NCBI GenBank assembly: GCA_964500775.1
Contig: CAZCQG010000006.1
Coordinates: 5,584 to 69,583, forward strand
Source: an uncultured Campylobacterales bacterium
Lineage (GTDB): Bacteria; Campylobacterota; Campylobacteria; Campylobacterales; CAZCQG01
Length of the DNA: 64,000 bases
Direction: 5' to 3'
In this document: in pieces, positions 25,064 to 62,250 of the stretch
Layout of the letters: every line of letters begins with the position of its first letter
Position numbering within the stretch: the first letter of the stretch is position 1
Notes under the pieces: model-generated
Seen by the model: only the letters and a program-made list of their open reading frames with translations
Told to the model about the DNA's origin: nothing
Databases searched by the model: none
Position numbers and translations under genes: made by a program

Positions 25064-25064
25064 T

Positions 25065-26582
25065 ATGTTAAAAATCGAGAGTATCCACGACGTAAGTTTA
25101 GAACCCGTAGAGATAGAGGGGATCGACTTAAATATCGCCCTCAAAAACTATGTTCTTTTTACAAAGTTCGAGGGGAAAACCATCGTTGCCCTCTCCGAAG
25201 AATACCTCACGCAAAGCTTGGATTATATTTCCAAACAAAATTTCAACTACAAAATAAAATTTCTTGATGAAGAATCTTTTGAGCGTCTCTACAATAAATT
25301 TCTAGAGATTCGCACCGATAGAGAGATAGAAAACTTTGAGAGCACCCCTGAAGAGAGCGTAGACGAAGACCTCTCGCTTACCGAATTTTTGCGCAATAGT
25401 GCAGATATTTTAACAAGCGAAGAATCAGCACCCATCATAAAATTCGTAAACTCGTTATTCTATCAAGCGATCAAAAAAAGGGCGAGCGACATCCACGTAG
25501 AGATGCACGAACACAAAGGGGAGGTGCGATTCCGAGTGGACGGCGTACTTATCAAACACGTCGATCTCGACCTCAAAATCACCGCCCTCATTATCTCTAG
25601 GATAAAGGTCATCTCCAACCTCGACATCAGCGAAAAGAGAGTCCCCCAAGACGGCAGGACGCAGGTAAAGATCGCAGGGAAAAAACTTGACATCAGGGTC
25701 TCTGACCTCCCGACGTATTACGGAGAGCGGATTGTTATGAGGATTTTGATGCAGAGTGAGGACATCCCGCATCTCGAAGAACTAGGCTTTAAAAGCGCGA
25801 TGACTAAAGAGTTTGAAAACTTGCTCAAATATAGCCACGGCATCATCCTAGTCACCGGTCCTACGGGGAGCGGGAAATCAACCACGCTCCACTCGTTTCT
25901 CCAAAAGCTCTCCACGCCCGACAAAAACATCATTACCGTCGAAGATCCCGTGGAGTACAAAGCCGATAATATCAATCAGATTCAAGTCAACGCCAAAGTA
26001 GGGTTAACCTTTGCCGCGGGTTTGCGCTCTATTCTTCGTCAAGACCCGGACGTCATTATGGTGGGGGAGATCAGGGATGCCGAAACGGCAAAAATAGCTA
26101 CGCAAGCTGCGCTGACCGGACACTTGGTCCTCTCTACGCTCCACACCAATAATGCCACATCGACTATCGCAAGACTCGTGGATATGGGAGTAGAGCCGTA
26201 TTTGCTCTCTTCCGTTCTAATAGGGGCTTTGGCACAGCGACTGGTGCGTAAACTTTGTCCCCACTGCAAAGAAGAGGACAAGGTCGCCGAAAATTATGCA
26301 CAAGAGTTTAACCTCCCTCAAGGTGCAAAAATCTACAATGCAAAAGGGTGTAGACAATGCAACTATACCGGATACAACGGCAGAGTCGCTGTAGGGGAGT
26401 TGTTTTTGATGAATGATGCGATAAAAAAAGCAATCAAAGATACCACCAACGACCAAATCATCAGGGAATACGCCAAGAAAAAAGGGCTCAAGACCCTCTC
26501 CGATCAGCTCAAAGAGGAGTTGCTAGCAGGCAACACTTCATTAGAAGAGGCGATCAGAGTCGGTTTAAAAGATGATGCGTAA
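25065..26582 (+). CDS. gspE: type II secretion system ATPase GspE
   Basis: 505 aa. Walker A GPTGSGKST, Asp box, Walker B (DPDVIMVGEIRD), His box (TGHLVLSTLHTN) and a tetracysteine motif CPHC...CRQC. Confidence 0.9.
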   Translation: MLKIESIHDVSLEPVEIEGIDLNIALKNYVLFTKFEGKTIVALSEEYLTQSLDYISKQNFNYKIKFLDEESFERLYNKFLEIRTDREIENFESTPEESVDEDLSLTEFLRNSADILTSEESAPIIKFVNSLFYQAIKKRASDIHVEMHEHKGEVRFRVDGVLIKHVDLDLKITALIISRIKVISNLDISEKRVPQDGRTQVKIAGKKLDIRVSDLPTYYGERIVMRILMQSEDIPHLEELGFKSAMTKEFENLLKYSHGIILVTGPTGSGKSTTLHSFLQKLSTPDKNIITVEDPVEYKADNINQIQVNAKVGLTFAAGLRSILRQDPDVIMVGEIRDAETAKIATQAALTGHLVLSTLHTNNATSTIARLVDMGVEPYLLSSVLIGALAQRLVRKLCPHCKEEDKVAENYAQEFNLPQGAKIYNAKGCRQCNYTGYNGRVAVGELFLMNDAIKKAIKDTTNDQIIREYAKKKGLKTLSDQLKEELLAGNTSLEEAIRVGLKDDA

Positions 26583-33653: not shown

Positions 33654-35504
33654 ATGCAAGAGATATTATTGATACTCCTTTTCGGTCCTTTTATGAGTGC
33701 GGCATTTTACTCGCTACTGCCTCGTGAAAGCGGTAATTTAACCATCATTGCCGCGGTAGCGGTTTTTTCATTGTCGGCTCTGTATCTGCATACGAGTCTA
33801 GAATCGCCGCTATTTTTATCACTCCATCTCCATGGGTTGATTTTGACGGTGGATTACCTATTGCTCGGATACTTCTTGTATGAAGGGATAAAAAACCGCT
33901 CAAAAGAGATTATTCTACTCTCGCTCGTTCAATTGGCACTTTTTACCTATTTTGTTTTTACGGCAAAAGAAAGCGAAACGCCGCAGATTTACTTGGATTC
34001 CCTTGCGACTATGATGCTACTGCTCATCAACATCGTCGGCGGAGCGATTTTGGTGTATGCGCTAGATTATATGAGAGACGAGACTACCGTCCTCAAGAAA
34101 GAGAAACAATTTGTAGCGTTGCTTTTATGTTTTTTAGGGGTGATGAACTTTGCGGTCGTGAGCAACAATATCGAGTGGTTCTTCCTGTTTTTTGAGCTTA
34201 CCACGCTATTTTCATTTTTACTTATCGGATTCCGAAAAGACGAAGTTTCTATACAAAATGCTCTAAAAGCATTATGGATGAATCAAATCGGCGGCGTATT
34301 TATTCTCGCAGCCCTCATATACCTAGCGACAAATAATTTCGACATAACCTTTAGTGCGCTCCTCGCTTCGCACGATAACGTCTACTTCATCCTCCCCGTT
34401 GCACTCTTGTCTTTGGCGGTGATGATAAAAGGGGCAATGTTCCCTTTTGATCGATGGCTACTTGGTGCGATGGTAGCGCCCACACCCGTCTCGGCGATAC
34501 TCCACTCCGCTACGATGGTGAAAATCGCCCCCTATATGATACTACGCCTCTCAGAATCCATAGCCGCTAGCGGTGTCGGGATTCTTATCACCCTTTTTGG
34601 CGCGATCGTGTTTTTCGGGGCGAGCTTTATCGCGCTCGGAAAAGAGAATCTCAAAGAGATACTCGCCTATTCGACCATTGCGATGCTCTCCCTAGCTATG
34701 GCACTCGGAGCGACGGGCAATAGCGATGCGCAATTTGCGGCACTAATGATCATCATCTTCCACGGTATCAGCAAAGCGATACTCTTTATGTGTGCGGGGA
34801 TTTTCGAGAAAAAATACCACGCCAAAACACTTACCCAAATACAAGAGCTCTTGTACGAAGCCCCTTTTTTGGTCATCGTAACGACTATTGGATTCCTATC
34901 TATCACCATCCCGCCGATGGGGGCATTTTTGGGAAAAATGTTTGCCATCGAAGCTTTGAGTCACATAGGAGCATTTGGGGTCGTCACACTCTCTTCTACG
35001 ATGCTGATAGTTTTCGGAAGCGTGGCACTAAGCGTCCTCTATTTTCGGGTGATAGGATCAATGGTGCAAAAAGAGGGGGCGAAAACAAGCTATACCGTCG
35101 ATTTGATGCGACCGTGGTATAAGTATTCGCTCGTCGCTCTTTTGACGATACTTACGATAACGTCGATGGGGTGTTTTATAATGTTTAAATTTTTATTTTT
35201 GGATGCCTTGGTAGGAATCTCGCATGAAGCATATAGCTTTACATGGACGTGGGCGGGGATGCGATTTGGCGAAATAGAGCTAAAAGCATACTACCTCATC
35301 GCGGGATTTCTCTTTTTACTCTCTCCGATACTCGCACTCACCCACAGGATCAAAAACAGAGACAGAGCACTTGAATACAGCTGCGGGGAGCGATTTGACT
35401 TTAAATTCAATATGTTCAAAATACACTTTTTTGATGCAAATAAAAAATACTTCGATATTATCGGGATCATTGGATTCTTATCTATTCTAGTTTGGAGTGT
35501 GTGA
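33654..35504 (+). CDS. echA: Ech-type hydrogenase membrane subunit (NuoL/HyfB-like antiporter-type subunit)
   Basis: 616 aa, polytopic. Proton-conducting-membrane-transporter pattern (WLLGAMVAPTPVSAILHSATMVKIAPY). First gene of the six-gene group 4 hydrogenase cluster. Confidence 0.75.
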   Translation: MQEILLILLFGPFMSAAFYSLLPRESGNLTIIAAVAVFSLSALYLHTSLESPLFLSLHLHGLILTVDYLLLGYFLYEGIKNRSKEIILLSLVQLALFTYFVFTAKESETPQIYLDSLATMMLLLINIVGGAILVYALDYMRDETTVLKKEKQFVALLLCFLGVMNFAVVSNNIEWFFLFFELTTLFSFLLIGFRKDEVSIQNALKALWMNQIGGVFILAALIYLATNNFDITFSALLASHDNVYFILPVALLSLAVMIKGAMFPFDRWLLGAMVAPTPVSAILHSATMVKIAPYMILRLSESIAASGVGILITLFGAIVFFGASFIALGKENLKEILAYSTIAMLSLAMALGATGNSDAQFAALMIIIFHGISKAILFMCAGIFEKKYHAKTLTQIQELLYEAPFLVIVTTIGFLSITIPPMGAFLGKMFAIEALSHIGAFGVVTLSSTMLIVFGSVALSVLYFRVIGSMVQKEGAKTSYTVDLMRPWYKYSLVALLTILTITSMGCFIMFKFLFLDALVGISHEAYSFTWTWAGMRFGEIELKAYYLIAGFLFLLSPILALTHRIKNRDRALEYSCGERFDFKFNMFKIHFFDANKKYFDIIGIIGFLSILVWSV

Positions 35505-36348
35505 AATGTCTGAAAGCTTTTTCTTTAATTTTTTGATCGCGCTCCTTATCCCCTTCATCGGAGCTTTCATCTACGGAATCGAACGCGTCGTGAAAGCGAG
35601 GATGCAAAATAGAATCGGACCGCCCGTATTACAGCCTTTTTACGATCTTTTCAAGCTCGCACAAAAAAGGGCGCTTATTATCCACTCATTCCATTCAAAT
35701 ATGGGAATCCTCCATTTTTTCGCAACGTGGTTTAGCACCGCGCTACTGTTTTTGGGGGAAGATATACTCATTGTGATTTTTTTCCATTTACTCGCGACCT
35801 CTTTGTTGCTTTTAGGATCTTATAGCGTAAAAAGCCAGTATTCGCAGATAGGCTCCCATAGAGAGCTTATTATGCTCTTTGGATACGAACCTATTTTTAT
35901 TCTACTCGGCATCACCCTTTTTAGTCTCGGAGATTCGTTTGCGATTTCCGATATGCAATTCGACGGTATGCCGCTACTAAGTGCTCCTTTGGCATTTTTG
36001 GCATTTTTGGTAGCTGCGCTTATGAAGCTCAAAAAATCCCCTTTCGATGCCGCCGAAGCGCACCAAGAACTTCTCGGCGGAGCGGAGATAGAGTACAGCG
36101 GCATCTATTACGAAGCGCTTTACGGAGCGAAAATGAACGAGTATGTCTACATCTACGGTTTTTGTTTTTTACTCGCGGGGAAAGAGCTACTAGCAGGTTT
36201 TATCCTATGCGCGATACTTTTTTTACTCATCAATCTCATAGATAATGCAACAGCGAGGCTCAAAACGGGTGATGCGCTTAAGATCGCTTTGGCGGTCGGG
36301 TTTATCGCACCGTTTCTCAATCTCGCACTTCTCTATTTAGGGGTGTAA
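35497..36348 (+). CDS. echB: Ech-type hydrogenase membrane subunit (NuoH/HycD-like)
   Basis: 283 aa, polytopic. RKV.ARMQ.R.GPP and PFD..EAE.EL..G...EYSG motifs. Overlaps echA by 8 nt. Confidence 0.75.
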   Translation: MCEMSESFFFNFLIALLIPFIGAFIYGIERVVKARMQNRIGPPVLQPFYDLFKLAQKRALIIHSFHSNMGILHFFATWFSTALLFLGEDILIVIFFHLLATSLLLLGSYSVKSQYSQIGSHRELIMLFGYEPIFILLGITLFSLGDSFAISDMQFDGMPLLSAPLAFLAFLVAALMKLKKSPFDAAEAHQELLGGAEIEYSGIYYEALYGAKMNEYVYIYGFCFLLAGKELLAGFILCAILFLLINLIDNATARLKTGDALKIALAVGFIAPFLNLALLYLGV

Positions 36349-36882
36349 ATGGAACTATTTGCAAACTCAAAGAAAAAATCACCGTGGATCATCCACTACA
36401 ACGCAGGAAGTTGCAACGGATGCGACATAGAGATACTCGCGACGCTCTCGCCAAAATATGACGTGGAGCGATTTGGCATCATCAACAAAGGGAATCCCAA
36501 GCAAGCCGACATACTCCTAGTCACCGGTCCCGTGACCAAGCGCTCGCGTGAACGTCTCGTGCAGCTCTACACCCAGATACCCGAACCAAAAGTGGTCATC
36601 TCGGTAGGTGCATGCACCAATAGCGGCGGGGTCTTCCGCGATATGTACAACCAAGAGTGCGGCGTAGATAGGTACATCCCCGTGGACGTCTACGTCGCAG
36701 GGTGCGCGGCGAGACCGGAGCAAGTAATCGAAGGGGTAGCTAAAGCACTAGAGATATTAGAACAAAAAACCGACGCGATAGAAAAACCCAAAAAGCTTTT
36801 CGGAAAGATAAATGAACTTTTCGGGCAAAACGACAGACGTGAGATAGCAAAAACACTAAAGGCGGATGATGCAGAAAATTGA
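36349..36882 (+). CDS. echC: Ech-type hydrogenase small subunit (NuoB-like, [4Fe-4S])
   Basis: 177 aa. GSCNGCDIE, GACTNSGG and VAGCAARPE cysteine motifs. Confidence 0.85.
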   Translation: MELFANSKKKSPWIIHYNAGSCNGCDIEILATLSPKYDVERFGIINKGNPKQADILLVTGPVTKRSRERLVQLYTQIPEPKVVISVGACTNSGGVFRDMYNQECGVDRYIPVDVYVAGCAARPEQVIEGVAKALEILEQKTDAIEKPKKLFGKINELFGQNDRREIAKTLKADDAEN

Positions 36883-37207
36883 GACTACTTTGCAAAACGT
36901 AGTAAACGACATTAAAAAATTCTATGACTACAAAAAACATTTTTACAGCATGGTAAACGGCGTAGATAGGTGTGAGGGGTTTGAGATACAGTGGCTTTTC
37001 GGCGAGTATCACGGCGAGGAAATCACTATGTTCGTAGCGAATTGCGGCTATGAAGACGAAGTACCCAGCCTCGCTTCTTTCATCCCCTCGTCGGTCTATT
37101 CGGAAAATGAACTCTTTGACCTCATGGGGGTGAAATTCCACGGTGCAAAAAGAGGATTATTCATCGAAAAAGATACCAAAGAATTCCCCTTAAGGTGCGC
37201 ACAATGA
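36866..37207 (+). CDS. echD: Ech-type hydrogenase subunit (NuoC/HycE-N-like)
   Basis: 113 aa. Sits between the small and large subunits. SVYSENELFDLMGVKFHG resembles the NuoC-family ERE..D..G motif. Confidence 0.6.
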   Translation: MMQKIETTLQNVVNDIKKFYDYKKHFYSMVNGVDRCEGFEIQWLFGEYHGEEITMFVANCGYEDEVPSLASFIPSSVYSENELFDLMGVKFHGAKRGLFIEKDTKEFPLRCAQ

Positions 37208-38289
37208 TCCAAGAACTCAACATCGCCCTCGGCTCGCAACACGTCGCCCTATTGGAGCCTATGCGGCTAGAATTCCAGACCGAAAACGAAAGAATCACGG
37301 GGGTAAACGCCGACTTCGGATACGTCCATAGAGGCATCGAAAAAGCGTGCGCTAGCAAGTTTAAATTCAAACAAGTGGGCTATGTCGTCTCTAGGGTATG
37401 CGGTCTGTGCTCCATCACTCACAGCTCGGCGTATACGTTTGCCATCGAAGGAATCTTCGGCGAAGAGATTCCTATACGGGCAAAGTATCTACGGATACTC
37501 GCACTAGAGCTAGATAGAATCCACTCTCATCTCTTATGTCTCGCCCACACCGCAGAATCGGCAGGCTTTGAAGCGCTTTTTATGCACATAATGAAACACC
37601 GTGAACTCGTAATGGAAGCCCAAGAATCGCTCACCGGCAACCGTGTCCACTTCGACTACCTCCATATCGGCGGGGTAAATAGAGACTTGGACAGCGAAAA
37701 AAGCGGGGAAATAAAAAACAAGATCATCCAACTAAGAGAGAAGGTCAAAGAGATACAAGAGTTATTCAACTCCAACTTCTCTCTCTCGATGAAATACAAA
37801 GGAATCGGCGCTATAAGTACCGAAGATGTCTACAAACTCAACGTCGCAGGTCCGCAGGCAAGAGCGGCAAACGTAGCGTGGGACGTCCGCAACGTCGATA
37901 CGACACTCCCCTATAAAGAGGTGGGTTTCAAACTCATCACCCAAGAAGGGGGTGACATCCACGCAAGAAACAACGTGCGCCTATTAGAGACGCTAAACTC
38001 CATCGAAATGGTATTAAACGTCTTAGACAATTTGCCTGCGGGGGAGATTACCGTAAAAATAAAAGGGAATCCGGATGGAGAATATGTCTCTAGAATCGAA
38101 GCCCCGAGAGGCGAGCTCTCCTACTATGTGCTCGGTGAGAAAAAGCCGATACTTAAAAGGGTGCGGATAAAAACACCGACCTACTCCAATGCGGCAAGTT
38201 TCGTGCATATAATGAACGGGCAAGACTACGGCGATATTCCTGCCATCATGGCATCGTTTGATCCGTGTATGTCGTGTACGGCAAAGTAG
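37195..38289 (+). CDS. echE: Ech-type [NiFe]-hydrogenase large subunit
   Basis: 364 aa. N-terminal RVCGLCSITHS (L1 CxxC) and C-terminal DPCMSCTAK* (L2 CxxC), with no C-terminal extension after the motif. Confidence 0.9.
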   Translation: MRTMIQELNIALGSQHVALLEPMRLEFQTENERITGVNADFGYVHRGIEKACASKFKFKQVGYVVSRVCGLCSITHSSAYTFAIEGIFGEEIPIRAKYLRILALELDRIHSHLLCLAHTAESAGFEALFMHIMKHRELVMEAQESLTGNRVHFDYLHIGGVNRDLDSEKSGEIKNKIIQLREKVKEIQELFNSNFSLSMKYKGIGAISTEDVYKLNVAGPQARAANVAWDVRNVDTTLPYKEVGFKLITQEGGDIHARNNVRLLETLNSIEMVLNVLDNLPAGEITVKIKGNPDGEYVSRIEAPRGELSYYVLGEKKPILKRVRIKTPTYSNAASFVHIMNGQDYGDIPAIMASFDPCMSCTAK

Positions 38290-38299
38290 GAGAGATGCG

Positions 38300-38713
38300 A
38301 TGTTAAAAGCGATGCTATTATCCCTATCCAATCTTTTTAAAAAGCCGGTCACGAAGCGCTACCCTTTTGAACCCACTTATAAACCTGCGGATTTCAGAGG
38401 GGAGATAAAATATAACGTGGAGGAATGTATCTTTTGCCTCAAATGTGAGAGCGCTTGCCCTCCGGGAGCCATTATTTTTGATCAGCACGTCAAAAGCGGC
38501 GTGTATAAGTACCATTACAATCCTTACCTTTGCATCTACTGCGGCGAATGCGTGCGCGCATGTCCGAAACCCGGATGCGATGGATCGCTTTGGCAAGATA
38601 GCACCGAAACTCTAAGCTCCACCGACAAGACAATCAACGATGAATGGTTTGCCTTAGAACAAAGAGCTTATAAAAACAGAGAGACTTATAAAACAAATAA
38701 AAAAACACAATAA
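38300..38713 (+). CDS. echF: Ech-type hydrogenase 2x[4Fe-4S] ferredoxin subunit (NuoI/HycF-like)
   Basis: Start moved to the ATG at 38300 (TAGGAGAG SD upstream). Contains CIFCLKCESACP and CIYCGECVRACP. The track start at 38258 would overlap echE. Confidence 0.8.
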   Translation: MLKAMLLSLSNLFKKPVTKRYPFEPTYKPADFRGEIKYNVEECIFCLKCESACPPGAIIFDQHVKSGVYKYHYNPYLCIYCGECVRACPKPGCDGSLWQDSTETLSSTDKTINDEWFALEQRAYKNRETYKTNKKTQ

Positions 38714-38796: not shown

Positions 38797-40284
38797 TTGG
38801 ATAGTAGCAACAAGGTTGAATATGTTTTTTTAGATCCGCAAAAATGTGACCTATTAAGCTTGTCAAGCGTAGGGCTCGTAAAAGCAGAGCTAAAAAATCC
38901 CAAAAAAAACTGCAAAATCATCTCTACGTTAGATAGCTCAAGAATCTTAAATCTCTCCATAGAAATAGACAAAGATACTCCCGAAGACCTCATAGGGGAT
39001 GCCATAAACGAGGCGGTATACGAAGATGCCTCTATCGATCCCGAAATAGAATACATACAAAAACATATCAAAAAAGGGAGAAATTACGACGGTTCGAAAA
39101 TCGAATACGACGTATTTTTGATCAATAAAAACGAAATCTACGGCAGTTTCTCCGAGTGTGCAAAAACATATCCGTATATCGACTACGTCATTCCCGAGAT
39201 TTTCCTTTTTAGATCACTTTATGAATACGGAGAGTTAAAAAAAGAAGGGTATGATATTTTTGTACATTTTGGAGAAAAAAGTGCATTTTTGACCCTGTAT
39301 CAAAAGGGAAATTTGATTTTTCACAAGACTTTCGATCTCAATCTCGATTCATTAAAAAACGTATTTAATGAGTATAGTCCCGCCGTTGTCACTCCCGAAG
39401 AATTTAAAAATATCTTTTCGGGAAATCTAAGCGAATCGATATATGAAGGGGCGCTCAACAAGCTTAATAATGAAATATTTATTGTGCTTGATGAAGTGAT
39501 GTCCTATATCAAACGAATGTACAGTTTTAGCGTCGTAGAGAATTTTTTTCTTGATTCCGCCTACGGCATCAACGAAAAATTGTATCTATATCTCGAAGAA
39601 CTTCTTGGCTATAAAGCAAAAAGATTTGAATTTAACTCCGAAAACACGAGACATATAGAGCAAATCGCCTTAAAAGCACTCGCCCACGAACTCCCGTGTC
39701 TCAACGAATCAAACTTTACGGTCTATGCTAGACCAAAGCCTTTCTTTAGCCGTCCGGTCGGAAAAACCGCACTCTACCTAATCATTGCCGCCGTACTTTC
39801 ATTACTCTACGGGGTTTTTATCGGAGTGATGTATTATATGACAAGCGAGAGCATTAAAACCCTCACGCTTGATAAAAACAAAATAGCGCTTCAAGCACAA
39901 AATATTCAAAATACGATAAATACTTTTAAAGCAGAAGCCCAAAGCGCTACGACAAAGGAAAATGAAGCCAAAGCGGAACTCCAAAGCTCTCTCAATATAC
40001 TTGAAGAGGTGCGAAAAGTAAAAGAGGGTTACAAACAAAAAACCCCGATGATTATTTACCTCTCAAAAGAGATCACGCGAACAGGGACGAATCTTCAAAC
40101 ACTGCAAATCGAAGATACGGGAGAAAAAACAAAAATAACCGCCGGCATTACCGCCACTAACGACAAGTCACTTTCCACGCTTATCGATACCTTAGGAAGA
40201 AACACTCAATATACATTGGAAATCGATACTATAACGCGAGGAGAGAACGACTACAACACCACTTTGAGGTTAATACGCCGATGA
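38797..40284 (+). CDS. MshI-like (fused PilM/PilN-type) pilus assembly protein
   Basis: 495 aa, TTG start. A ~330-aa cytoplasmic part, a single TM helix (ALYLIIAAVLSLLYGVFIGVMYY), and a coiled-coil periplasmic tail. First gene of an operon whose order matches mshIJKL(M)NEG. Confidence 0.5.
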   Translation: MDSSNKVEYVFLDPQKCDLLSLSSVGLVKAELKNPKKNCKIISTLDSSRILNLSIEIDKDTPEDLIGDAINEAVYEDASIDPEIEYIQKHIKKGRNYDGSKIEYDVFLINKNEIYGSFSECAKTYPYIDYVIPEIFLFRSLYEYGELKKEGYDIFVHFGEKSAFLTLYQKGNLIFHKTFDLNLDSLKNVFNEYSPAVVTPEEFKNIFSGNLSESIYEGALNKLNNEIFIVLDEVMSYIKRMYSFSVVENFFLDSAYGINEKLYLYLEELLGYKAKRFEFNSENTRHIEQIALKALAHELPCLNESNFTVYARPKPFFSRPVGKTALYLIIAAVLSLLYGVFIGVMYYMTSESIKTLTLDKNKIALQAQNIQNTINTFKAEAQSATTKENEAKAELQSSLNILEEVRKVKEGYKQKTPMIIYLSKEITRTGTNLQTLQIEDTGEKTKITAGITATNDKSLSTLIDTLGRNTQYTLEIDTITRGENDYNTTLRLIRR

Positions 40285-40913
40285 AACTGCAATTTAATTT
40301 ACAAAGGATACTCGATTCTTACGACAATTATCTGAATGATAAAAAAGAATCCGAAAAAGCGATTCTTATCTATTCACCCGCCGTACTCATCGTATTTTTA
40401 GCATATTTTTACCTATTTCCGATCGTAGATAGCTACTACACGAAAATAAAAAAACAACATAATGCTCTGCAAACAGAGATGCAGAATCTCAACAATATTA
40501 TCCTCACTCAATCTAGCGGCGACATCTTGGCGAAGCTCAAAAAAGATGCCGATGACGCGAAGGCAAATACCGAAATCATTTGGCAGCAAAAAAGTTTGAT
40601 AGAGGAGAAGATCTACGATCTTAGCCTCAACCAAGAGAAGTGGCATACCCTCCTTGATCAAATTACCAAAGAAGGGGATGCGTTAGGGATAAAATTAGAT
40701 ACGTTCACGTTTAAAGACAACAACGTCGTCTCCAATAATATCAAATCAACTATCATTACCGTAGAAGGGGATGGAAACTATAAGAACATCCTTCTCTTTT
40801 TGAATTTTTTAGAGAGTAAAAGCGGCTACGTCAACCTCAAAAACATTCAAATGCAAGGAGGGGGTGAGATTGTATTTAAAGTCGAAATAGAGGTGTGGAG
40901 GATGGATGTTTAA
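40281..40913 (+). CDS. MshJ/PilO-like bitopic membrane protein
   Basis: 210 aa. TM helix at residues ~28-50, coiled coil, then a C-terminal alpha/beta region. ATGA overlap with the upstream gene. Confidence 0.4.
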   Translation: MKLQFNLQRILDSYDNYLNDKKESEKAILIYSPAVLIVFLAYFYLFPIVDSYYTKIKKQHNALQTEMQNLNNIILTQSSGDILAKLKKDADDAKANTEIIWQQKSLIEEKIYDLSLNQEKWHTLLDQITKEGDALGIKLDTFTFKDNNVVSNNIKSTIITVEGDGNYKNILLFLNFLESKSGYVNLKNIQMQGGGEIVFKVEIEVWRMDV

Positions 40914-41331
40914 GTTGCTCCTCCTAACCTTTTTTACGCTCAATCTCTTTGCCAACGAACCCGTGATTTCACCGCAAATGCAAAAGATTTTTGAATTACT
41001 ATTGCAAGACGGTCGTATCGACTTAAAAGATGAGATACTCTCACTCCAAAACCCCTATCCGAAAATCCAAGAAGCGCCCGCAGAATCATCAACGGAAACA
41101 GACTCCTCGACTCCGCCGCAAAAAAAAGAAGAAAAACTCACGATGATACTCGACGGAGCGGCAAAAATCGGTGCGACATGGTATAAAGTGGGGGATGAAT
41201 ATAACGGGCAAAAAATCGTAGAGATAACAGATAATAAAGTGATATTGCAAAAGTTGGATTCCACCGAAGAGATGCTTTTGATAGAAAAAAATATAAATCT
41301 AGAGGTAAAAACAAATGAAACACGTAACTAG
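40906..41331 (+). CDS. MshK/PilP-like small periplasmic protein
   Basis: 141 aa. Signal peptide MFKLLLLTFFTLNLFA, a Pro/Glu/Ser linker, and a C-terminal ATWYKVGDEYNGQKIVEITDNKVILQK beta-domain pattern. Confidence 0.35.
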   Translation: MFKLLLLTFFTLNLFANEPVISPQMQKIFELLLQDGRIDLKDEILSLQNPYPKIQEAPAESSTETDSSTPPQKKEEKLTMILDGAAKIGATWYKVGDEYNGQKIVEITDNKVILQKLDSTEEMLLIEKNINLEVKTNETRN

Positions 41332-42805
41332 AGCGATTGTAGCGATTTTATTACTATCTGCAGCATTGTTTGCGGAGTGCGAGAATCGACTCTTCACCAT
41401 TTCCGCCAATAATAAAGGGGCGAGTGCGGAAGATATTATCAATCGTCTCTCGGAAGAGTGTCAATTCAGCGTCGTCGTAAAAGACGGCAATAATTCAGAA
41501 ACGATACTCAAAAAACCGCTTCAAAACGTTTTTCTCAAAGATGCCACAATCGAGGAGGTATTTCAACTCGTCCTCGGAGAAAACGGACTTGAATACGAGT
41601 ACGACAACCAAAAATTAAAAATCCATTACCTCATCACCAAAACATTCGAAGTGGACATACTCAATACCAGCAGAACAGGAACAAGCTCTACGAATATCGC
41701 GATAACGGGTGAGCGGGTGAGCGGCGAATCGACGACGACCAATTCCGATTCCGGAGGAAATTCAAAAGCAGAGATTAAATCGGATGACGGCTATAGCTTT
41801 TGGAGCGACACTTTAGTACAAGAGCTTTCCGATATTGCGACGCGCCCCGAGGATGAATTTAGCGATGTCAAAATCGTCATCAATAAAGGGGCCGGTCTTA
41901 TCACCGTTACAGGAAACAAAAAGCAAGTCGCAAGGGTGGATGAATACCTCAAAAGTATTAACACGAGGCTAAAAACGCAGGTGCTTATCGACGTAAATAT
42001 CTTAAGCGTGAAACACACGAACTCAAAGTCAATCGGAATTGATTGGAGCAGTATAATGGATAGCGTAAACGTCTTAACCGCCACCCAAGATTATTCATTT
42101 ACAAAAACAAAAGAGATTACCGGAATAACAGACGATACGAAGACCTATACGAAAAACCTATCGCTAGGGACGTTAAGCAACCTACCGATGAGCGACATAG
42201 TAAACTTCTTGCGCGGATACGGCGATGTCACCACCGTATCAAATCCAAAAGTAATGACGCTCAATAATCAACCCTCGCTTATCAGTGTGGGAAATATATT
42301 CTACTACGAAGAGACCGACGTCACTACAACTTCCGGCACGAGCACTACGAACGTAGCTACCGATGTAACGTATACTCCGCTTTTCGTCGGAATCTTGCTC
42401 GATATTACCCCCTCTATCTACAATGACGAAATAATGCTCAAAATAAATCCCTCCATCACAAAAACTACCAATAGCAACATAGATACGGGGACTGCTTTTA
42501 CTTCGGGACCTCCGAATCTAGAATCGAAACAATTAAGCTCGGTAGTCAAACTCAAAGACGGCGAAAGAGCGGTGCTGGGAGGACTTATCTCTAGGGATAG
42601 GCAAAACGACGAGAAAAAAGTCCCCTTGCTCGGAGACATCCCGCTTGTGGGATACGCCTTTAAACGCGAAGAACTCTATGATCAACTCTCCGAAATGGTT
42701 ATAATTATAACGCCGCACGTTGTAGGAAATAAGGAGCTCTCTTTGAGGGATTTGGGATACACGAAAGAAAAAATTGAAAGCGCTATGGATTACTACGAAG
42801 AATGA
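41315..42805 (+). CDS. type IV pilus secretin (MshL/PilQ family)
   Basis: 496 aa with a signal peptide. N-terminal short domain (FLKDATIEEVFQLVLGENGLEYEYDNQKLKI) and a secretin core ending VPLLGDIPLVGYAFKREELYDQLSEMVIIITPHVV. Confidence 0.85.
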   Translation: MKHVTRAIVAILLLSAALFAECENRLFTISANNKGASAEDIINRLSEECQFSVVVKDGNNSETILKKPLQNVFLKDATIEEVFQLVLGENGLEYEYDNQKLKIHYLITKTFEVDILNTSRTGTSSTNIAITGERVSGESTTTNSDSGGNSKAEIKSDDGYSFWSDTLVQELSDIATRPEDEFSDVKIVINKGAGLITVTGNKKQVARVDEYLKSINTRLKTQVLIDVNILSVKHTNSKSIGIDWSSIMDSVNVLTATQDYSFTKTKEITGITDDTKTYTKNLSLGTLSNLPMSDIVNFLRGYGDVTTVSNPKVMTLNNQPSLISVGNIFYYEETDVTTTSGTSTTNVATDVTYTPLFVGILLDITPSIYNDEIMLKINPSITKTTNSNIDTGTAFTSGPPNLESKQLSSVVKLKDGERAVLGGLISRDRQNDEKKVPLLGDIPLVGYAFKREELYDQLSEMVIIITPHVVGNKELSLRDLGYTKEKIESAMDYYEE

Positions 42806-43632
42806 GCAGATATTTAGAACTTGAAAAAAAATGGGTGCGATATAAAATAAAGAGGCTCGCCATAGTATTCATCCCTATAGTTTTACTCTTATTTATGGGG
42901 GGAGCGATGGCGTATTATTACGACTTCTCAAAACAGAGCAAAGCATCCCGTCCCGCCGCCCTCCAAATAGTACCGAACGAAAATCAAAATATTGCGGCTG
43001 TTTCCGTCGAAAAGCCGATGGAAAAGGTCACGCAAAAACCAAAGTGCTATACCGTCACCGTAGATGTTCTTAATATCCGCAAAGAACCTTCTCTCTCTTC
43101 GGAGAAACTCGGAAGACTCTTTGGAGGCGAGGAGTTTTGCAGCGATATAAATGAGGAGAATTGGATAAAAATCGATGAAGGGTGGATTTACGCAAAGGGG
43201 ACGCTCTCTCTAGTCAAAGATGAGCAAATCAACGAGAAACAAGTATATATCCAGGACCTCTTACAAATCCAAAATAGTGAGCCGCCGCAAGAAAACCAAG
43301 GTGCGGAAATAGAAATAAAAACAAAAAGTGCCGACAAAAATCAAATACTCAAAAAAATGATTGAGAGTTTCAACTCTTCTCCCGATGCAAAATTGGCAAT
43401 TGATATAGGAAAAAGGTATTATGAAGATAAAAAATACCGTGAAGCGCAATATTGGGCATTGAGATCCAATGAGCTTGACAATGGAGATGCGAGTTGGATT
43501 CTCTTCGCTAAAGCAAAATTTGGCGCGGGAGAGAAGGATGAAGCGATTACTATATTAACGACGGCATCCCAAAAAACCAAGAACAAAGAGTTTGATCGAC
43601 TTCTTAACGAAATGCGGGCAAATAGAGAATAG
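42802..43632 (+). CDS. membrane-anchored SH3b + TPR-like protein (MshN-slot)
   Basis: 276 aa. TM helix (LAIVFIPIVLLLFMGGAMAYYY), SH3b-like segment (YTVTVDVLNIRKEPSLSSEKLGRLFGGEEF...NWIKIDEGWIYAKG), and C-terminal TPR-like helices. Confidence 0.55.
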   Translation: MSRYLELEKKWVRYKIKRLAIVFIPIVLLLFMGGAMAYYYDFSKQSKASRPAALQIVPNENQNIAAVSVEKPMEKVTQKPKCYTVTVDVLNIRKEPSLSSEKLGRLFGGEEFCSDINEENWIKIDEGWIYAKGTLSLVKDEQINEKQVYIQDLLQIQNSEPPQENQGAEIEIKTKSADKNQILKKMIESFNSSPDAKLAIDIGKRYYEDKKYREAQYWALRSNELDNGDASWILFAKAKFGAGEKDEAITILTTASQKTKNKEFDRLLNEMRANRE

Positions 43633-43642
43633 CAGGATTATT

Positions 43643-45394
43643 ATGAGAATAGGCGATAGATTAATACAAGCGGGACTAATAGACGAGGCGCAATTAAACC
43701 TCGCACTTGAGGAGCAAAGAAGACTACGAGAAGAAAAAAGGAGAAAAAAAATCGTCAGGGTCTTGGTTGATCTTGGACTCTTAAAAGAGGCGAATCTCCT
43801 TAGTTTTTTTGTAGAGCAGTGCAAGAGCGGATTTCTCAATCTTGATTCTATCGTTGAAGATTTTCCCGCGAGCGAAGACACCATCTTAGAAGCTACGGCT
43901 TCGTTGATGGATATGGAGTACGTCGACTTCTACGGCATAAAGATAGATCAAAACGTCGTAGATTACATACCCTTCGTCCATATTAAAAAATTCTATGCGT
44001 TTCCCTACAAGGAAGATGAGCAATTTATCTATATCGCGCTTATTGATCCTTTTAATCCCATACTTAAAGAGACGTTTCAAAGGGCGATAAAAAAGAAACC
44101 CCTTAGATACACCCTTGTAAAAAAAGAGCAGTTTGTCAGAATCTTGGACAAACTTGAGATAAACGACGGCGTTAAAGATCTCATCACTAAGATAAGAAGA
44201 GAGATACGCGGAGGGAGCCTGAATGACGGCGGAGAATCTTCTATTTCAAAGCTCATCGACGTAATCTTTGAAACCGCCATTAAAAATAAAGCGAGTGATG
44301 TCCATATAGAATCCAACGACAACGAATGTGTCATACGCTGCAGAGTAGATGGGATACTATACGAATACTTTGACTTAGACAAAGATATGTTCGCACCGCT
44401 AAGCTCAAGGATAAAACTCATCTCCGAACTAGATATTGCCGAAAAAAGAAAGCCCCAAGACGGCAGATTTTCGCAGGTTTTTTTAGGAAGAGAGTTTGAT
44501 TTTAGGGTCTCTACGCTTCCTATCGTCACGGGCGAATCGATCGTCGCGAGGATTCTTGATAAGTCAAAAGTGTTAATGAAACTCGAAGATCTCGGAATGA
44601 GCGAAAAAAACTTTGAAAGAATCAATAAAACCATCAAATCGCCTTACGGAATCATCTTCGTAACCGGACCTACGGGAAGCGGTAAAACCACTACATTGTA
44701 CGCCGCACTCAATGCTATAAAAAGCGTAGGAGAAAAAATAATCACCGTCGAAGATCCGGTCGAATACCAGATGGAAGACGTCCACCAAGTGATGGTAAAC
44801 GAAAAAGCCGGACTTACTTTTTCTGCCGCACTTCGCTCCATTCTTAGACAAGATCCCGACAAAATAATGGTCGGTGAGATTCGTGACCAAGAAACGTTGC
44901 GTATCGCCATCCAAGCCGCACTCACCGGACACTTGGTAATCTCGACGTTGCACACCAACGATGCACTAAGCGGAATCACGAGACTTATGGATATGGGAGT
45001 GGAGAGCTTTTTCGTCGGATCGGCGATGGCGGGGATAGAAGCGCAAAGACTTGTGAGAAAACTCTGCCCTCACTGTAAATACGAGTCGGAACTTCCGCAA
45101 AATATTTTAGACGAATTGCTATCGTACCTTCCCGATGACTACAGATTCTACCGAAGTCACGGCTGCGAAAAATGCAATATGACCGGCTATCTCGGTAGAG
45201 AACTTATCTCTGAAGTCGTCATAGGGAGCGAGAGGCTTAGAAAGCTTATCATCGAAGGGGCATCTAAAGAGATTCTCCTAGAAGAGGCAAGAAAAGACGG
45301 TTTTGTTACGATGTTTGAAGACGGTCTTGCAAAAGCATTGCAAGGATTAACAAGCATAGAAGAGATTTACAGAGTCGCTAAACTGCCGTCATGA
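43643..45394 (+). CDS. mshE: type IV pilus extension ATPase, MshE-like with N-terminal MshEN (c-di-GMP-binding) motif
   Basis: Start moved to the ATG at 43643 (AGGA 6 nt upstream, after the stop of the previous gene). N-terminus MRIGDRLIQAGLIDEAQLNLALEEQ... Walker A GPTGSGKTT, DPDKIMVGEIRD, TGHLVISTLHTN, and CPHC...CEKC. Confidence 0.85.
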   Translation: MRIGDRLIQAGLIDEAQLNLALEEQRRLREEKRRKKIVRVLVDLGLLKEANLLSFFVEQCKSGFLNLDSIVEDFPASEDTILEATASLMDMEYVDFYGIKIDQNVVDYIPFVHIKKFYAFPYKEDEQFIYIALIDPFNPILKETFQRAIKKKPLRYTLVKKEQFVRILDKLEINDGVKDLITKIRREIRGGSLNDGGESSISKLIDVIFETAIKNKASDVHIESNDNECVIRCRVDGILYEYFDLDKDMFAPLSSRIKLISELDIAEKRKPQDGRFSQVFLGREFDFRVSTLPIVTGESIVARILDKSKVLMKLEDLGMSEKNFERINKTIKSPYGIIFVTGPTGSGKTTTLYAALNAIKSVGEKIITVEDPVEYQMEDVHQVMVNEKAGLTFSAALRSILRQDPDKIMVGEIRDQETLRIAIQAALTGHLVISTLHTNDALSGITRLMDMGVESFFVGSAMAGIEAQRLVRKLCPHCKYESELPQNILDELLSYLPDDYRFYRSHGCEKCNMTGYLGRELISEVVIGSERLRKLIIEGASKEILLEEARKDGFVTMFEDGLAKALQGLTSIEEIYRVAKLPS

Positions 45395-46641
45395 GATACT
45401 TCAGGGTCACCGTAGTCGACAAGGGTAAGAAAAAATTCATAGACGTAAAAGCCACAAATAAAAACGCCGCAAAAGATTTGGCAATCGCCGAAAACAAGGG
45501 TGGTAAAGCACTTCTGGTCAAAGAAATCCAAGAGCCCCTCGGAGAAAAAATCATCAATACGCTAAAAGCTCTTCGCGCCGGGATACAAGGAAGCGAAAAG
45601 GTCAAGGTAGATGAGCTTATTCCCGTATTTAAACAAATGAGTCTGATGACGGGAGCGGGTATATCTATTCACCAAAGCATGCAAGAGATTATCGATTTTA
45701 CCGAGAATAAGATGATAAAGACCATCTTCACCGAAGCGCTCGTAGGAATCAATAGCGGCAAAACACTAAGCAATGCCTTTAAACCCTATCAAGAGCAACT
45801 CGGTAATCTCTCGATGTCGATGATAGAGCTCGGAGAACAAACAGGAAATCTCTCCGATTCCCTAGGAATGCTCTCGGTTACCCTAGCAGAGATTCGAGAC
45901 AATATCGCCAAGTTCAAAAAAGCGTTACGCTACCCCTTATTTACTATCGGGGCGATGGTGATCGCTTTTGTTTTGTTGATTTTACTCGTCGTGCCGAAGT
46001 TTAAAAAAATATTTGAGGGTTTGGGTGCGGATTTGCCGCTTCCTACGATTATCTTACTAAAAATTGAGTACCTTTTTACAAATTTCGGACATCTCCTTTT
46101 TGTGATGCTTTTAGGTTCTATTTTTACGGTGAGGTACCTCTATAAAAACAATAAAAAGTTCCATTTTTGGTTTGATAGTGCTATCCTCAAAGTAAAACTT
46201 TTAGGCGATGTTATCTATCTCTATTCAATGAATCAATATATGATTACCCTCTCACAGATGCTTAAAGCCGGTATCCCGCTTGAAGAAGCGCTGCGCTCCT
46301 CATCAAATATGGTGAACAATATCTATCTCAAAAGGCTTTTTAATTCTATCACCGACCTCATCAGAAAAGGTGCATCACTCACAAGCTCTATGCAGGAGAC
46401 CAAACTTTTTGAGCGAAGCTCTTTACAGATGGTAAGTGCAGGAGAACAAAGCGGGAATCTCGACGAGATGCTAGGGGTAGCGGGGAATTACTACAAGATG
46501 AAATACGACAATATAGTGGATAATCTCTCTTCTTATATAGAGCCTCTTATTACGGCTTTTATCGCATGTATGGTTTTACTATTGGCGCTTGGGATATTTA
46601 TGCCGATGTGGGATCTAGCGGGCGCGGCAAGAGGACATTGA
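45391..46641 (+). CDS. type IV pilus platform protein (MshG/PilC/GspF family)
   Basis: 416 aa. Two T2SSF repeats, three TM segments, and a C-terminal EPLITAFIACMVLLLALGIFMPMWDL tail. Confidence 0.85.
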   Translation: MRYFRVTVVDKGKKKFIDVKATNKNAAKDLAIAENKGGKALLVKEIQEPLGEKIINTLKALRAGIQGSEKVKVDELIPVFKQMSLMTGAGISIHQSMQEIIDFTENKMIKTIFTEALVGINSGKTLSNAFKPYQEQLGNLSMSMIELGEQTGNLSDSLGMLSVTLAEIRDNIAKFKKALRYPLFTIGAMVIAFVLLILLVVPKFKKIFEGLGADLPLPTIILLKIEYLFTNFGHLLFVMLLGSIFTVRYLYKNNKKFHFWFDSAILKVKLLGDVIYLYSMNQYMITLSQMLKAGIPLEEALRSSSNMVNNIYLKRLFNSITDLIRKGASLTSSMQETKLFERSSLQMVSAGEQSGNLDEMLGVAGNYYKMKYDNIVDNLSSYIEPLITAFIACMVLLLALGIFMPMWDLAGAARGH

Positions 46642-59200: not shown

Positions 59201-59747
59201 ATGCTCCTTAGGCTATACGGATGCGATCGTTATAGAGGCGCTTGATTTTACGCTACACACGGAAGAGAAAGTCGCGATACTCGGGAGGAGCGGGAGAGGA
59301 AAAACGACGTTTATAAAAACACTCATCGGTCTTTTATCGCCAAAAAGCGGTAGGCTAGAGCGGTATTTTAAAAAAAGCGGGTATTTATGCCAAAACTACA
59401 CCCTCATCGATTCTATTACCGCTCTGCAAAATATCGTTTTTGTTTGCGACAATATTACCCGCGCAAAGGAAATGCTCACTTTGGTAGGGATGGAAAAATA
59501 CGGTGAGAGATTCCCCAAGGAGCTTAGTAAAGGGATGCAAAAACGTGTCGAACTCGCAAGGGCTTTGAGCGTAAAACCCGATTTATTGGTACTTGACGAA
59601 CCTTTTGCGAATCTCGATAAAAAAAGTAGACTAGAGCTAATACACATCACCAAAGAATACCTCGCGCTCCACAAAAGCGCTCTGCTCTACGTCACCCATG
59701 ACGAAGAGGAAGCGAAGCAACTGTGCGATACTACGCTGCGATTCTAG
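59175..59747 (+). CDS. ABC transporter ATP-binding protein (short form)
   Basis: 190 aa, TTG start. Walker A GRSGRGKTT, signature LSKGMQKRV, Walker B LLVLDEPF, H-loop VTHD. Confidence 0.75.
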   Translation: MDTLVRLDKCSLGYTDAIVIEALDFTLHTEEKVAILGRSGRGKTTFIKTLIGLLSPKSGRLERYFKKSGYLCQNYTLIDSITALQNIVFVCDNITRAKEMLTLVGMEKYGERFPKELSKGMQKRVELARALSVKPDLLVLDEPFANLDKKSRLELIHITKEYLALHKSALLYVTHDEEEAKQLCDTTLRF

Positions 59748-62250
59748 AGGTGAGTGATTCTAAGATTTCGGGTTTATGGAGATAGTATCCTTGGAGATAG
59801 TCGATACCTAGGGCGATTGCGATGTCTTGCACTTCTTGATTATGGATATACTCCGCTACCACTTTCAAACCGAGCTCTTTTGCGAGTGCGACTATCGATT
59901 TGACGGTGAGGTAGGCGTTTTTACTGGTATCGATGTCCTTCATCAATGAGCCGTCTATCTTCACAAAATCCGCTCCAATGCGCAAGATATAATCGAAATT
60001 TGAATAGCCGCTTCCGAAATCGTCGATAGAGATCTTGCATCCAAACTCTTTCGCCCTTTTTATAAAATCGTTTATTTCGTTGCTCATAACTATCTGCTCG
60101 CTCTCGACTAGCTCGATAATCACCCTGTTTTGCATCTCAAATTTCACGAGATTCTCAAACAAAAACTCAACGGTCTCTTTGTCGAGTATATCCTCAAAGG
60201 TGAGGTTGATAGAAAATACGAGGTGATTCTCTTTAAACGCTTCAAACACCTTCAGAATCATAATCCTCGTGAGTTTGGTATAGAGCTTGGAGTGTTTGGC
60301 TTGCTCTAAAAAAATAAACGGAGGGATGACCTTGCCCTCTTCATCCACGATACGCATTAATGTCTCGACTTTGAAATCATCGTGATTATCGGCATCGACC
60401 ACTTTTTGTCCGTATGCCTGCACAAAATCGAATCGAATAGCATCGTATATCATCTGCGTCACTTCCCGACTACGCTCCAAATCCTCTTTGATCTGTTCGT
60501 TTTCGTCATAATCGACAAGTGAAACTCTGCTATTTTTACTATGGTGCATCGCCATATCGGCTTTTTGGTAGAGCATTTCCGTACCGCGAGCAATAGAGAC
60601 GCGTATCGAGATGGCAAGCTCTATTTCTCCTACTTTCATAGGCTCGTCCGAAAATCGCTCTATGATTTTTTTCGCACCAAAGACCACGTCTTCGTTTTCG
60701 TAGTTTTTAAACAAAATCGCAAACTCATCCCCGGAAACCCTGTATAACGCACCGCCTACAGGCAATAGCTCCGCGATCTCGGCGCTAAAACGGATCAATA
60801 CCTTATCGCCGAATTCATGCCCGTACGAATCGTTTATCCCTCGGAATCTATCGATGTTTACTAGCAAAAGCGCTTTTTTACCGCCGTCGTCTAGATCGAT
60901 ATTAAGCTGCTGTCTATTGGGCAATCCCGTAACGCCATCGGTCGTTTGTTTGAGAATAAATTGCATCTGTTCAAATACTTCGGTCACGTCGCTTCTTATG
61001 GCGATATACTCTTCGATGTTACCGCTTTCGTCTAAAATAGGGGCTATAACACTCCTGACGTAATAATCCTCGCCCTCTTTGTTTCTATTTTTTATGACCC
61101 CTATCCAGCTTTTTCCGCTTGAGATTCTCCGCCAAATAGCGGCAAAAAACTCTTTGCTGTTGTCGGGATGTTTTACGATGTTATGCGGTTTACCGATAGC
61201 TTCTTCGCGGCTAAAGCCGCTTATGCGGACAAACTCGTCGTTGACGTAGGTGATGATACCGTTTTTGTCGGTTTTTGTGACGATGGAGCTTTCATCGATT
61301 ATTTTTTTGTATTGCTCTAAAATATAGTTTTGCTTGAAAAAATCTTTGATGACGTTAGCGATTTTTCCCATCTCGTCATCGTTATCCAAAAGATACTCTA
61401 TGTCTTTTTTATTTCGTCTCGTGAGGGCTTCCATGATAGAGTTGAGCGGTTTGTCGATATTTTGCCGCAAAGCACCGAAAAAAACGGCGGCAGAGAGGAT
61501 AGAGGTGAGGAGGATGATAACCATTTGGGTTTGAAAAAGATTTTCGATGATCGTATCGATACTTTTTTGCATGACAAGACCGAGGGTCGCAACTGCGTTT
61601 CCTTCTCTATCTTTCAGGGGAAAATAGATGTCATAGTCGCCTGCGGCTTCCGAAGCGAGAGAGACCTCTTGATTTATAATCTCGCTTATCCCCTCGATGA
61701 GTTGCTTATCCCATATTTTACCCCCTACGAGGTACCCTAGAGGCTTGCTTTCTCTCAAAAAATCATCCGAAGGCTGTATGGGAGCGATGAATATATTTAA
61801 AAGTTCGCCTCTGTTTTTTATGAAAAAATTGGAAAATGTCGGGTGCTCGGGGTCGAAATATTGTTTTTTTACAAACTCCATCTGCAACGATTCGCCATCT
61901 TCTTTGAGCTTGGACTCATAGAGAAATTCGAGATTTTCGTCATATATGAGTACATAATCGACACCGTATGTTTCGAGTGCGGTAGGGATGTTTTCGTTTG
62001 CCCAAGTTTTATCGGAGGTTTTTGCAAAACGCCCCGTCTCTTCGCGCAAGGAGTAGTCCATACACAAAGTCTTGAGGGGTACGGATTTTAATTCCACTAT
62101 CCCTTGGAGTACTTTTTCAAACTCTTGCGTTCTCTCATTAACAATAAGCCCGATGTTCTTTTTTTGGCTCATCATCACGTAAGAAAAAAGGGCTATAAAA
62201 ATCGCAAGGACAAAAAGAAGTGCTAGTCCGATTTTTATACGAAGTTTCAT
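59731..62250 (-). CDS. membrane sensor with periplasmic domain, PAS, GGDEF (SGDEF) and EAL (ETL) domains
   Basis: 839 aa. TM1, a ~210-aa periplasmic region, TM2, PAS (ITYVNDEFVRISGFSREEAIGKPHNIV), GGDEF domain (YRVSGDEFAILF), and EAL domain (ETLMRIV...SINL...ELVE...DDFGSGYSN...KIDG...AEYI...QGYY). Confidence 0.85.
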   Translation of the reverse strand: MKLRIKIGLALLFVLAIFIALFSYVMMSQKKNIGLIVNERTQEFEKVLQGIVELKSVPLKTLCMDYSLREETGRFAKTSDKTWANENIPTALETYGVDYVLIYDENLEFLYESKLKEDGESLQMEFVKKQYFDPEHPTFSNFFIKNRGELLNIFIAPIQPSDDFLRESKPLGYLVGGKIWDKQLIEGISEIINQEVSLASEAAGDYDIYFPLKDREGNAVATLGLVMQKSIDTIIENLFQTQMVIILLTSILSAAVFFGALRQNIDKPLNSIMEALTRRNKKDIEYLLDNDDEMGKIANVIKDFFKQNYILEQYKKIIDESSIVTKTDKNGIITYVNDEFVRISGFSREEAIGKPHNIVKHPDNSKEFFAAIWRRISSGKSWIGVIKNRNKEGEDYYVRSVIAPILDESGNIEEYIAIRSDVTEVFEQMQFILKQTTDGVTGLPNRQQLNIDLDDGGKKALLLVNIDRFRGINDSYGHEFGDKVLIRFSAEIAELLPVGGALYRVSGDEFAILFKNYENEDVVFGAKKIIERFSDEPMKVGEIELAISIRVSIARGTEMLYQKADMAMHHSKNSRVSLVDYDENEQIKEDLERSREVTQMIYDAIRFDFVQAYGQKVVDADNHDDFKVETLMRIVDEEGKVIPPFIFLEQAKHSKLYTKLTRIMILKVFEAFKENHLVFSINLTFEDILDKETVEFLFENLVKFEMQNRVIIELVESEQIVMSNEINDFIKRAKEFGCKISIDDFGSGYSNFDYILRIGADFVKIDGSLMKDIDTSKNAYLTVKSIVALAKELGLKVVAEYIHNQEVQDIAIALGIDYLQGYYLHKPEILESLTSRIAA

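Follow-up and report, generated by a model that had tools for sequence, protein, structure and literature searches.

MshEN domains, found on ATPases of type II secretion and type IV pilus systems, are an established and widespread family of cyclic di-GMP (c-di-GMP) receptors. In the structure of the domain from Vibrio cholerae MshE (VcMshEN; PDB entry 5HTL), guanine takes backbone NH bonds from the glycine at position 3 of a 24-residue motif and from the residue after it, packs on a leucine triad and stacks on the residue at position 1, and the glutamine at position 24 touches the ribose-phosphate (PMC5013675). It is the backbone NH of this glycine that binds guanine, and a side chain in its place clashes with the binding pocket. 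The G40I mutant of VcMshEN binds with a dissociation constant (KD) of 36 µM, a 72-fold loss, and a melting-temperature shift of 1 °C (PMC5013675 and its supplement), and binding by G11L is undetectable by isothermal titration calorimetry (PMC5013675). XpsE, a non-binder, has G11V and G40L among other changes (PMC5013675). Here we describe the MshEN domain of a pilus ATPase encoded in a 64,000-nucleotide stretch of contig CAZCQG010000006.1 from an uncultured Campylobacterales bacterium; "the window" below means this whole stretch, numbered from its first nucleotide. The domain combines a complete first half-site with a degenerate second one, and we somewhat favour the reading, drawn from its sequence, that its c-di-GMP binding is weakened or rearranged.

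Further precedent comes from the GSPII domains of Thermus thermophilus PilF. In GSPII-A, alanine at position 3 costs 10-30-fold (PMC12002112), and the intact domain still shows no binding after its full consensus has been restored (PMC12002112). GSPII-B, with K and L at position 1, binds c-di-GMP at 6 nM (PMC11731258). Judging from these off-consensus binders and from the failure of restored GSPII-A, a match to the MshEN motif is neither necessary in detail nor sufficient for binding. Among epsilonproteobacteria, MshEN domains have already been counted in Sulfuricurvum and Sulfurimonas (Wang et al. 2016, PMC5013675). Both are among the organisms listed there as having GGDEF proteins while lacking PilZ or any other known receptor for c-di-GMP; our literature search found no paper pairing MshE with Campylobacterota taxa.

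The N-terminus of the window protein reads M-RIGDRLIQAGLIDEAQLNLALEEQ-RRLREEKRRK-KIVRVLVDLGLLKEANLLSFFVEQ. Motif I, which the initial annotation had placed at residue 2, indeed occupies residues 2-25 (RIGDRLIQAGLIDEAQLNLALEEQ; 43646..43717, + strand): it matches RLGxx(L/V/I)(L/V/I)xxG(L/V/I)(L/V/I)xxxxLxxxLxxQ as a regular expression, with I for L at position 2, and aligns with VcMshE residues 9-32. When L, I or V was allowed at position 2, this was the sole match in six frames of the whole window, and the strict RLG form had no match in the same six frames. Alignment places a basic linker, RRLREEKRRK, after it (43718..43747, +), which is 10 residues long where VcMshE has 5, so that the two motifs and their spacer form a 58-residue unit as against the canonical 53. 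The second copy (residues 36-59, KIVRVLVDLGLLKEANLLSFFVEQ; 43748..43819, +) aligns with VcMshE residues 38-61. It was correctly recognised as a repeat, retaining the hydrophobic core and the turn glycine, but is weaker than had been thought, the position-3 glycine being lost. Codon GTC at 43754..43756 (+) specifies Val38 in place of VcMshE G40, precisely where the most conserved ligand-contact residue of the family belongs. With this valine and a linker of 10 rather than 5 residues, the description of a near-perfect tandem was an overstatement; its end coordinate, 43800, also cut motif II 19 nt short of the true end at 43819.

Mapped onto the known contacts, half-site 1 is complete, comprising R2, I3, G4-D5, L18, L22 and Q25 together with I37 contributed by motif II. 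Half-site 2 has Val38 for Gly, Phe56 for Leu and the 10-residue linker for 5; aligned on the turn glycine, motif II differs from VcMshE by R38 to K, L39 to I, G40 to V, D41 to R and L58 to F. Both motif glutamines are retained, and Lys takes the place of the motif II Arg. This lysine is harmless: PilF GSPII-B has K and L at position 1 and yet binds. The longer spacer would likewise be a soft deviation, by analogy with PilF GSPII-C, a binder that tolerates 7 residues. The bulky side chains of Val38 and Phe56, on the other hand, may fill the Gua2 pocket.

PF05157 (MshEN) was passed by the window protein. The full protein scored 36.4 bits against NF053729, the NCBIfam 53-position model of the c-di-GMP motif, marginally under its cut-off of 38 bits. 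In silico, a Val38-to-Gly change gained 7 bits on this model, and a linker shortened to 5 residues gained 13 bits. For comparison, fragments of VcMshE, PilF GSPII-B and PilF GSPII-C scored 86, 63 and 71 bits, respectively. A close relative, P0003, also fails the model, at 36.6 bits.

That the domain itself is genuine was indicated by several lines of evidence. PF05157 matched at 33.9 bits against a cut-off of 23.1, over residues 90-172 only; it misses the motifs because the model covers the C-terminal subdomain alone. A phmmer search of residues 1-187 against PDB sequences aligned residues 2-66 with VcMshE 9-68 of 5HTL (E = 4e-7), the linker carrying 5 inserted residues; its top match was PilF GSPII-C (E = 9e-12). 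Residues 1-186 were modelled with AlphaFold2 from 49 homologues, at a mean predicted local distance difference test (pLDDT) score of 88.6. The model places helices at 3-9, 15-30, 37-43 and 49-61, linker residues 26-30 falling in helix α2 and 31-36 in a loop, followed by an α/β subdomain (about residues 67-160; 43841..44122, +, from the PF05157 match and the model) with strands at 92-94, 119-124, 129-133 and 154-159, flanking helices and pLDDT of about 90 or higher. The best Foldseek match of this model in the PDB was 5HTL (E = 1e-9). The further top matches were all GSPII domains, namely 9G1W (PilF GSPII-A, ranked third), 8PDK, 2D27 (XpsE-N) and 7LKO (Xanthomonas citri PilB-N), and PilF GSPII-B is among the matches. 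Sequence and model together thus show the first ~160 residues to be a predicted four-helix bundle followed by an α/β subdomain, that is, an MshEN (GSPII) domain, whose resemblance to the family is, on this evidence, one of homology and not of chance. A chance resemblance, or an artefact of a wrong start, is ruled out for practical purposes by the sequence, the profile, the fold and the start site.

The mechanical open reading frame list has the gene begin at a TTG at 43592, 17 codons further 5′, a start that would run 41 nt into the upstream gene. The ATG at 43643, preferred in the initial annotation, is preceded by a Shine-Dalgarno sequence AGGA (43634..43637, +; read directly) 5 nt upstream and lies beyond the stop of the upstream gene at 43632. 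An NCBI record holds the identical 583-amino-acid protein (P0001). The long start is impossible in the two relatives whose DNA was compared, Wolinella succinogenes (L081) and a JGI metagenome contig (L083), since each has an in-frame stop 3 codons 5′ of the ATG. We therefore retain the ATG.

We compared the 120 closest homologues, 78 of which form a clade with Wolinella, Helicobacter species and Campylobacterales metagenome-assembled genomes among its members; it comprises 52 distinct sequences, ~42-79% identical over the N-terminal 186 residues. Throughout the clade motif I has R or K at position 1, always Gly at position 3, and invariant L17, L21 and Gln24. No member has Gly at position 3 of motif II: all 78 carry V, I or L there. 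Gln at position 24 of this motif survives in just 20. A linker of 7 residues is shared by 75 of the 78, the length of 10 being confined to the window protein and its two closest relatives (P0002, P0003); these three alone thus carry a 3-residue insertion, which on its own costs about 13 bits on the curated profile. The closest relatives outside the clade read KIGRVLVDLG at motif II, which makes the alignment of Val38 with Gly unambiguous and Val the derived state. The Arg at position 4 is present in these Gly-bearing relatives too and is therefore ancestral, not a compensating change.

A survey of the wider family pointed to the same position. Residues 1-66, a short query, returned 72 matches among 1.8 billion representatives. 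Of the 219 half-motifs in these diverse representatives, 204 (93%) have Gly at position 3 and 79% have Gln at position 24, and position 1 varies; the glycine is thus better conserved than either. RIG, KIG and PIG are frequent natural variants. Phe at position 21 occurs in 36 of 53 half-motifs lacking Gly at position 3 and in 3 of 260 that have it, a co-occurrence that is phylogenetically confounded and is consistent with a pocket filled by side chains. The survey also brought up multi-repeat MshEN_N arrays, proteins of 430-490 residues (P0122, P0125-P0127, P0138) built from six to eight MshEN-like half-motifs in a row, most of which open with PLG or PIG.

The first interpretation of this domain was as a fully functional, high-affinity receptor that turns the ATPase on when c-di-GMP binds, so that the nucleotide gates pilus extension as it does with V. 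cholerae MshE. The complete motif I, the overall MshEN fold, the MSHA-type operon (after the mannose-sensitive haemagglutinin pilus) and a GGDEF-EAL protein in the window all speak for it, as do the passing clade homologues described below and the binding of PilF despite off-consensus position 1 and longer linkers. We nevertheless consider it unlikely. Val stands at the motif II glycine, where G40I costs 72-fold and Ala 10-30-fold elsewhere; the linker is double the canonical length and the full-length score falls under the curated cut-off; the motif II Gln is poorly kept in the clade; and GSPII-A shows that a near-consensus motif need not bind. Val38, the linker, the score of 36.4 bits and the G40I and GSPII-A data leave the claim that c-di-GMP directly gates pilus extension unsupported as it was put: such gating may occur, but the sequence does not entail it.

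We think it somewhat more credible that this MshE-type ATPase, with half-site 1 complete and half-site 2 degenerate, has weakened or rearranged binding. Canonical sub-micromolar binding appears unlikely on these residues, and weaker or altered binding possible. If c-di-GMP binds, we expect the affinity to be lower by a factor of ten or more, with a KD in the tens of micromolar, or the arrangement to differ. Whether the response would be physiologically useful is on the doubtful side, though by no means fanciful. Several observations pull away from this reading of a weakened second half-site. The isolated 69-residue N-terminus passes NF053729 at 44.3 bits (E = 1e-11), and most clade homologues pass it as full proteins, at 42-52 bits. 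The motif I contacts are strictly conserved across the 52 distinct clade sequences, which argues that a ligand of some kind may still be bound there. VcMshEN G40I still binds 1:1 (PMC5013675), a sign that changes are better tolerated in half-site 2 than in half-site 1. PilF GSPII-B and GSPII-C show that nanomolar affinity can coexist with Lys or Leu at position 1 and with a linker of 7 residues, and a high-affinity scaffold could by analogy absorb a 70-fold loss. With only Met1 before RIG, the obstructing turn that blocks GSPII-A cannot form in the window protein. Finally, the window encodes enzymes of c-di-GMP metabolism.

The domain might instead have lost nucleotide binding altogether and serve as a structural or partner-docking module for the inner-membrane platform or a regulator. 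Partner binding has parallels: the N-domains of Xanthomonas and Pseudomonas PilB bind PilZ-FimX, and those of GspE bind GspL. The Foldseek matches included non-binders, namely X. citri PilB-N in its PilZ complex, XpsE-N and PilF GSPII-A (PMC8389850), and the bulky residues at motif II positions 3 and 21 could fill the pocket. A Campylobacterota sister group that has lost motif I still keeps the domain. However, the motif I contacts (position 1, G and Q) face solvent or ligand and are not part of the core, yet they are conserved in the clade, which is unexpected for a purely structural role, although GSPII-A keeps motif I too. The operon showed neither a PilZ nor a FimX partner. We judge complete loss of binding improbable on this evidence, if well worth keeping in mind.

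The sister group (P0075 and P0078-P0120, from Sulfurospirillaceae and other Campylobacterales) shows the reverse pattern. Its 582-residue ATPases, 52-55% identical, have lost motif I (e.g. NLIQYLIQNRIVDENS...) and kept LG at the start of motif II (TLGDILLKNGYF). P0075, the one member scored, gave no match to NF053729.

A remodelled, asymmetric site is a further alternative, in which one guanine would be held canonically and the other on a surface formed by Val, Phe and the basic linker, or in which the ligand would be some other nucleotide, for instance a mixed cyclic dinucleotide. Half-site 1 is invariant in the clade; half-site 2 is conserved in a non-canonical form, K-I-(V/I/L)-R with F at position 21; the basic linker of 7-10 residues is itself conserved; and VcMshEN binds cyclic GMP-AMP (cGAMP) weakly (PMC5013675). 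Decay of the site combined with structural conservation would explain the same changes equally well, and the position-4 Arg is ancestral and not compensating. We give this alternative little credence. In the same vein, the asymmetric MshEN of the Campylobacterota clade might conceivably be a distinct receptor subtype and not a decayed one, with a new c-di-GMP geometry and a higher activation threshold, or with another nucleotide as ligand; this we regard as a speculation of low probability.

The gene itself (43643..45394, +; 583 amino acids) was assigned to pilus extension ATPases of MshE/PilB type from Pfam T2SSE and MshEN matches and from PDB matches to PilF and PilB (E = 1e-117 to 1e-108). 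Its T2SSE core spans residues 197-577 (44231..45373, +; PF00437, 443.6 bits, E = 5.7e-133). The protein lies below the cut-offs of both the PilB equivalog TIGR02538 (490.1 versus 675.65) and the GspE equivalog TIGR02533 (511.3 versus 630.25); by profile it is thus a superfamily member (PF00437) that belongs to neither named equivalog. The ATPase would power pilin polymerisation via the PilC-like platform protein encoded directly downstream.

By homology, the neighbouring genes point to an MSHA-like type IV pilus operon whose extension ATPase this gene encodes. Upstream lie three genes encoding 495, 210 and 141 residues (38797..41331, +), placed at the mshI, mshJ and mshK positions by position and size only; their products had no significant Pfam, NCBIfam or PDB match, the 210-residue protein at the mshJ position having a weak PilO match. 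They are followed by a MshL-type secretin (41315..42805, +; TIGR02519 pilus_MshL, 256.5 bits versus a cut-off of 250.2; Pfam Secretin and Secretin_N_2) and by an SH3/TPR-like protein at the mshN position (42802..43632, +; weak Pfam ANAPC3/TPR_19 and SH3_3 matches), a position that this gene keeps in relatives. Downstream, a platform protein of the PilC/MshG/GspF family (45391..46641, +; Pfam T2SSF in two stretches, E = 1.2e-48) overlaps the ATPase stop codon. Order and sizes thus fit mshI, J, K, L, N, E and G, with family support for L, E and G only; gene order and family scans revealed no mshM-like ATPase in the operon. Synteny in W. succinogenes is identical (secretin, TPR protein, ATPase, T2SSF, Fur, ffh), and the same three genes precede its secretin. 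This shared synteny and the 69% identity of the ATPase orthologue mark the bacterium as a Wolinella-related member of the Helicobacteraceae. Directly 5′ of the window operon is a complex-I/hydrogenase-4-like cluster (33654-38713, +), with Pfam domains Proton_antipo_M, NADHdh, Oxidored_q6, Complex1_30kDa, Complex1_49kDa/NiFeSe and Fer4; at this position W. succinogenes has PilT-like ATPases and a pilin gene instead (L081, 1-2380).

The window encodes a second traffic ATPase, a GspE-like protein of a type II secretion cluster (25065..26582, +). Its N-terminus, read directly, contains no motif and no four-helix subdomain, and neither MshEN nor NF053729 matched the protein; the initial annotation was right that it lacks the motif, as profiles, regular expression and direct reading all indicate. 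It belongs to a type II secretion-like region (9852-27497) that also includes a second T2SSF gene (9852-11069, -), a PDZ/T2SSB-like protein (22330-23142), a GspD-type secretin (23207-25063) and two N-methyl pseudopilins (26572-27497). Many open reading frames of this region have no significant Pfam match, including those for proteins of 1198, 545 and 518 residues at 11645-18876; they could be novel components or substrates.

Evidence for c-di-GMP metabolism in the window comes from an 839-residue CHASE4-PAS-GGDEF-EAL protein (59731..62250, -; Pfam EAL 171 bits, GGDEF 80 bits), whose presence means that the organism has c-di-GMP turnover enzymes. Its signatures are SGDEF, with ETLMR and DDFGSGYS in the EAL domain, and on these it may act mainly as a phosphodiesterase. 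A GGEEF string in the SH3/TPR-like gene (43123-43137, +) was considered as a hidden diguanylate cyclase and rejected, there being no Pfam GGDEF-domain match; it looks like a chance match in an SH3-like region. Rfam found no c-di-GMP riboswitch in the whole window, a tRNA gene (57545-57618, +) being the sole match at the gathering threshold. Elsewhere in the window is a chemoreceptor (27501-29645, -) that combines dCache_3, HAMP and MCPsignal domains and ends in a CZB zinc-binding domain at its C-terminus.

Should the domain bind c-di-GMP, signalling by this nucleotide would have the MSHA-like pilus as a direct output. Free-living members of this group are rich in GGDEF/EAL enzymes, and the receptors known from them are few. 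The lesson for annotation is that a match to the MshEN pattern is not a prediction of binding. Most of the information lies in the position-3 glycine of each half-motif, and motif II of this clade is without it. The clade is a natural test case for the degeneracy that the second half-site can bear. The clade-wide asymmetric motif is the sole, mildly new element of the locus.

Set beside V. cholerae MshEN (5HTL), the window domain has the same fold and the same N-terminal place on the ATPase of an MSHA-type operon; all constrained positions of motif I match, with I for L at position 2, and the helix-bundle core of motif II is kept. It differs in its linker (10 versus 5 residues), in five motif II changes and in its N-terminal NF053729 score (44 versus 86 bits). 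Since motif I begins at residue 2, the basic N-terminal tail of VcMshE (K5, R7, K8) is missing, and unlike the V. cholerae msh operon, that of the window has no mshM-like gene.

The closest parallel to the asymmetry is T. thermophilus PilF GSPII-A (9G1W; Neissner et al. 2025, PMC12002112), which has a near-perfect motif I and a degenerate motif II with a non-Gly position 3 (Ala41). It is a proven non-binder with the same fold, so that the motif alone is no predictor of binding. Unlike the window protein, GSPII-A is without both Gln residues and without the motif II Arg; and an N-capped extra helix turn before its RLG blocks the site, where the window protein has only Met1 before RIG. PilF GSPII-B (K/L at position 1) and GSPII-C (P at position 1, 7-residue linker) are off-consensus yet bind c-di-GMP. 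Both keep the position-3 glycine in both motifs, which the window protein does not.

Xanthomonas XpsE-N (2D27/2D28) and X. citri PilB-N (7LKO) share the two-subdomain traffic-ATPase fold and do not bind c-di-GMP (PMC5013675, PMC8389850); both have lost both motifs, whereas the window protein keeps a complete motif I. Finally, the orthologue of W. succinogenes DSM 1740 (BX571656.1, 533544-535295; P0004) is 69% identical and has the same motifs, RIGDRLI and then KIVRVLVDLG. It carries a 7-residue linker and four extra N-terminal residues, MIKQ, and passes NF053729 at 49.5 bits.

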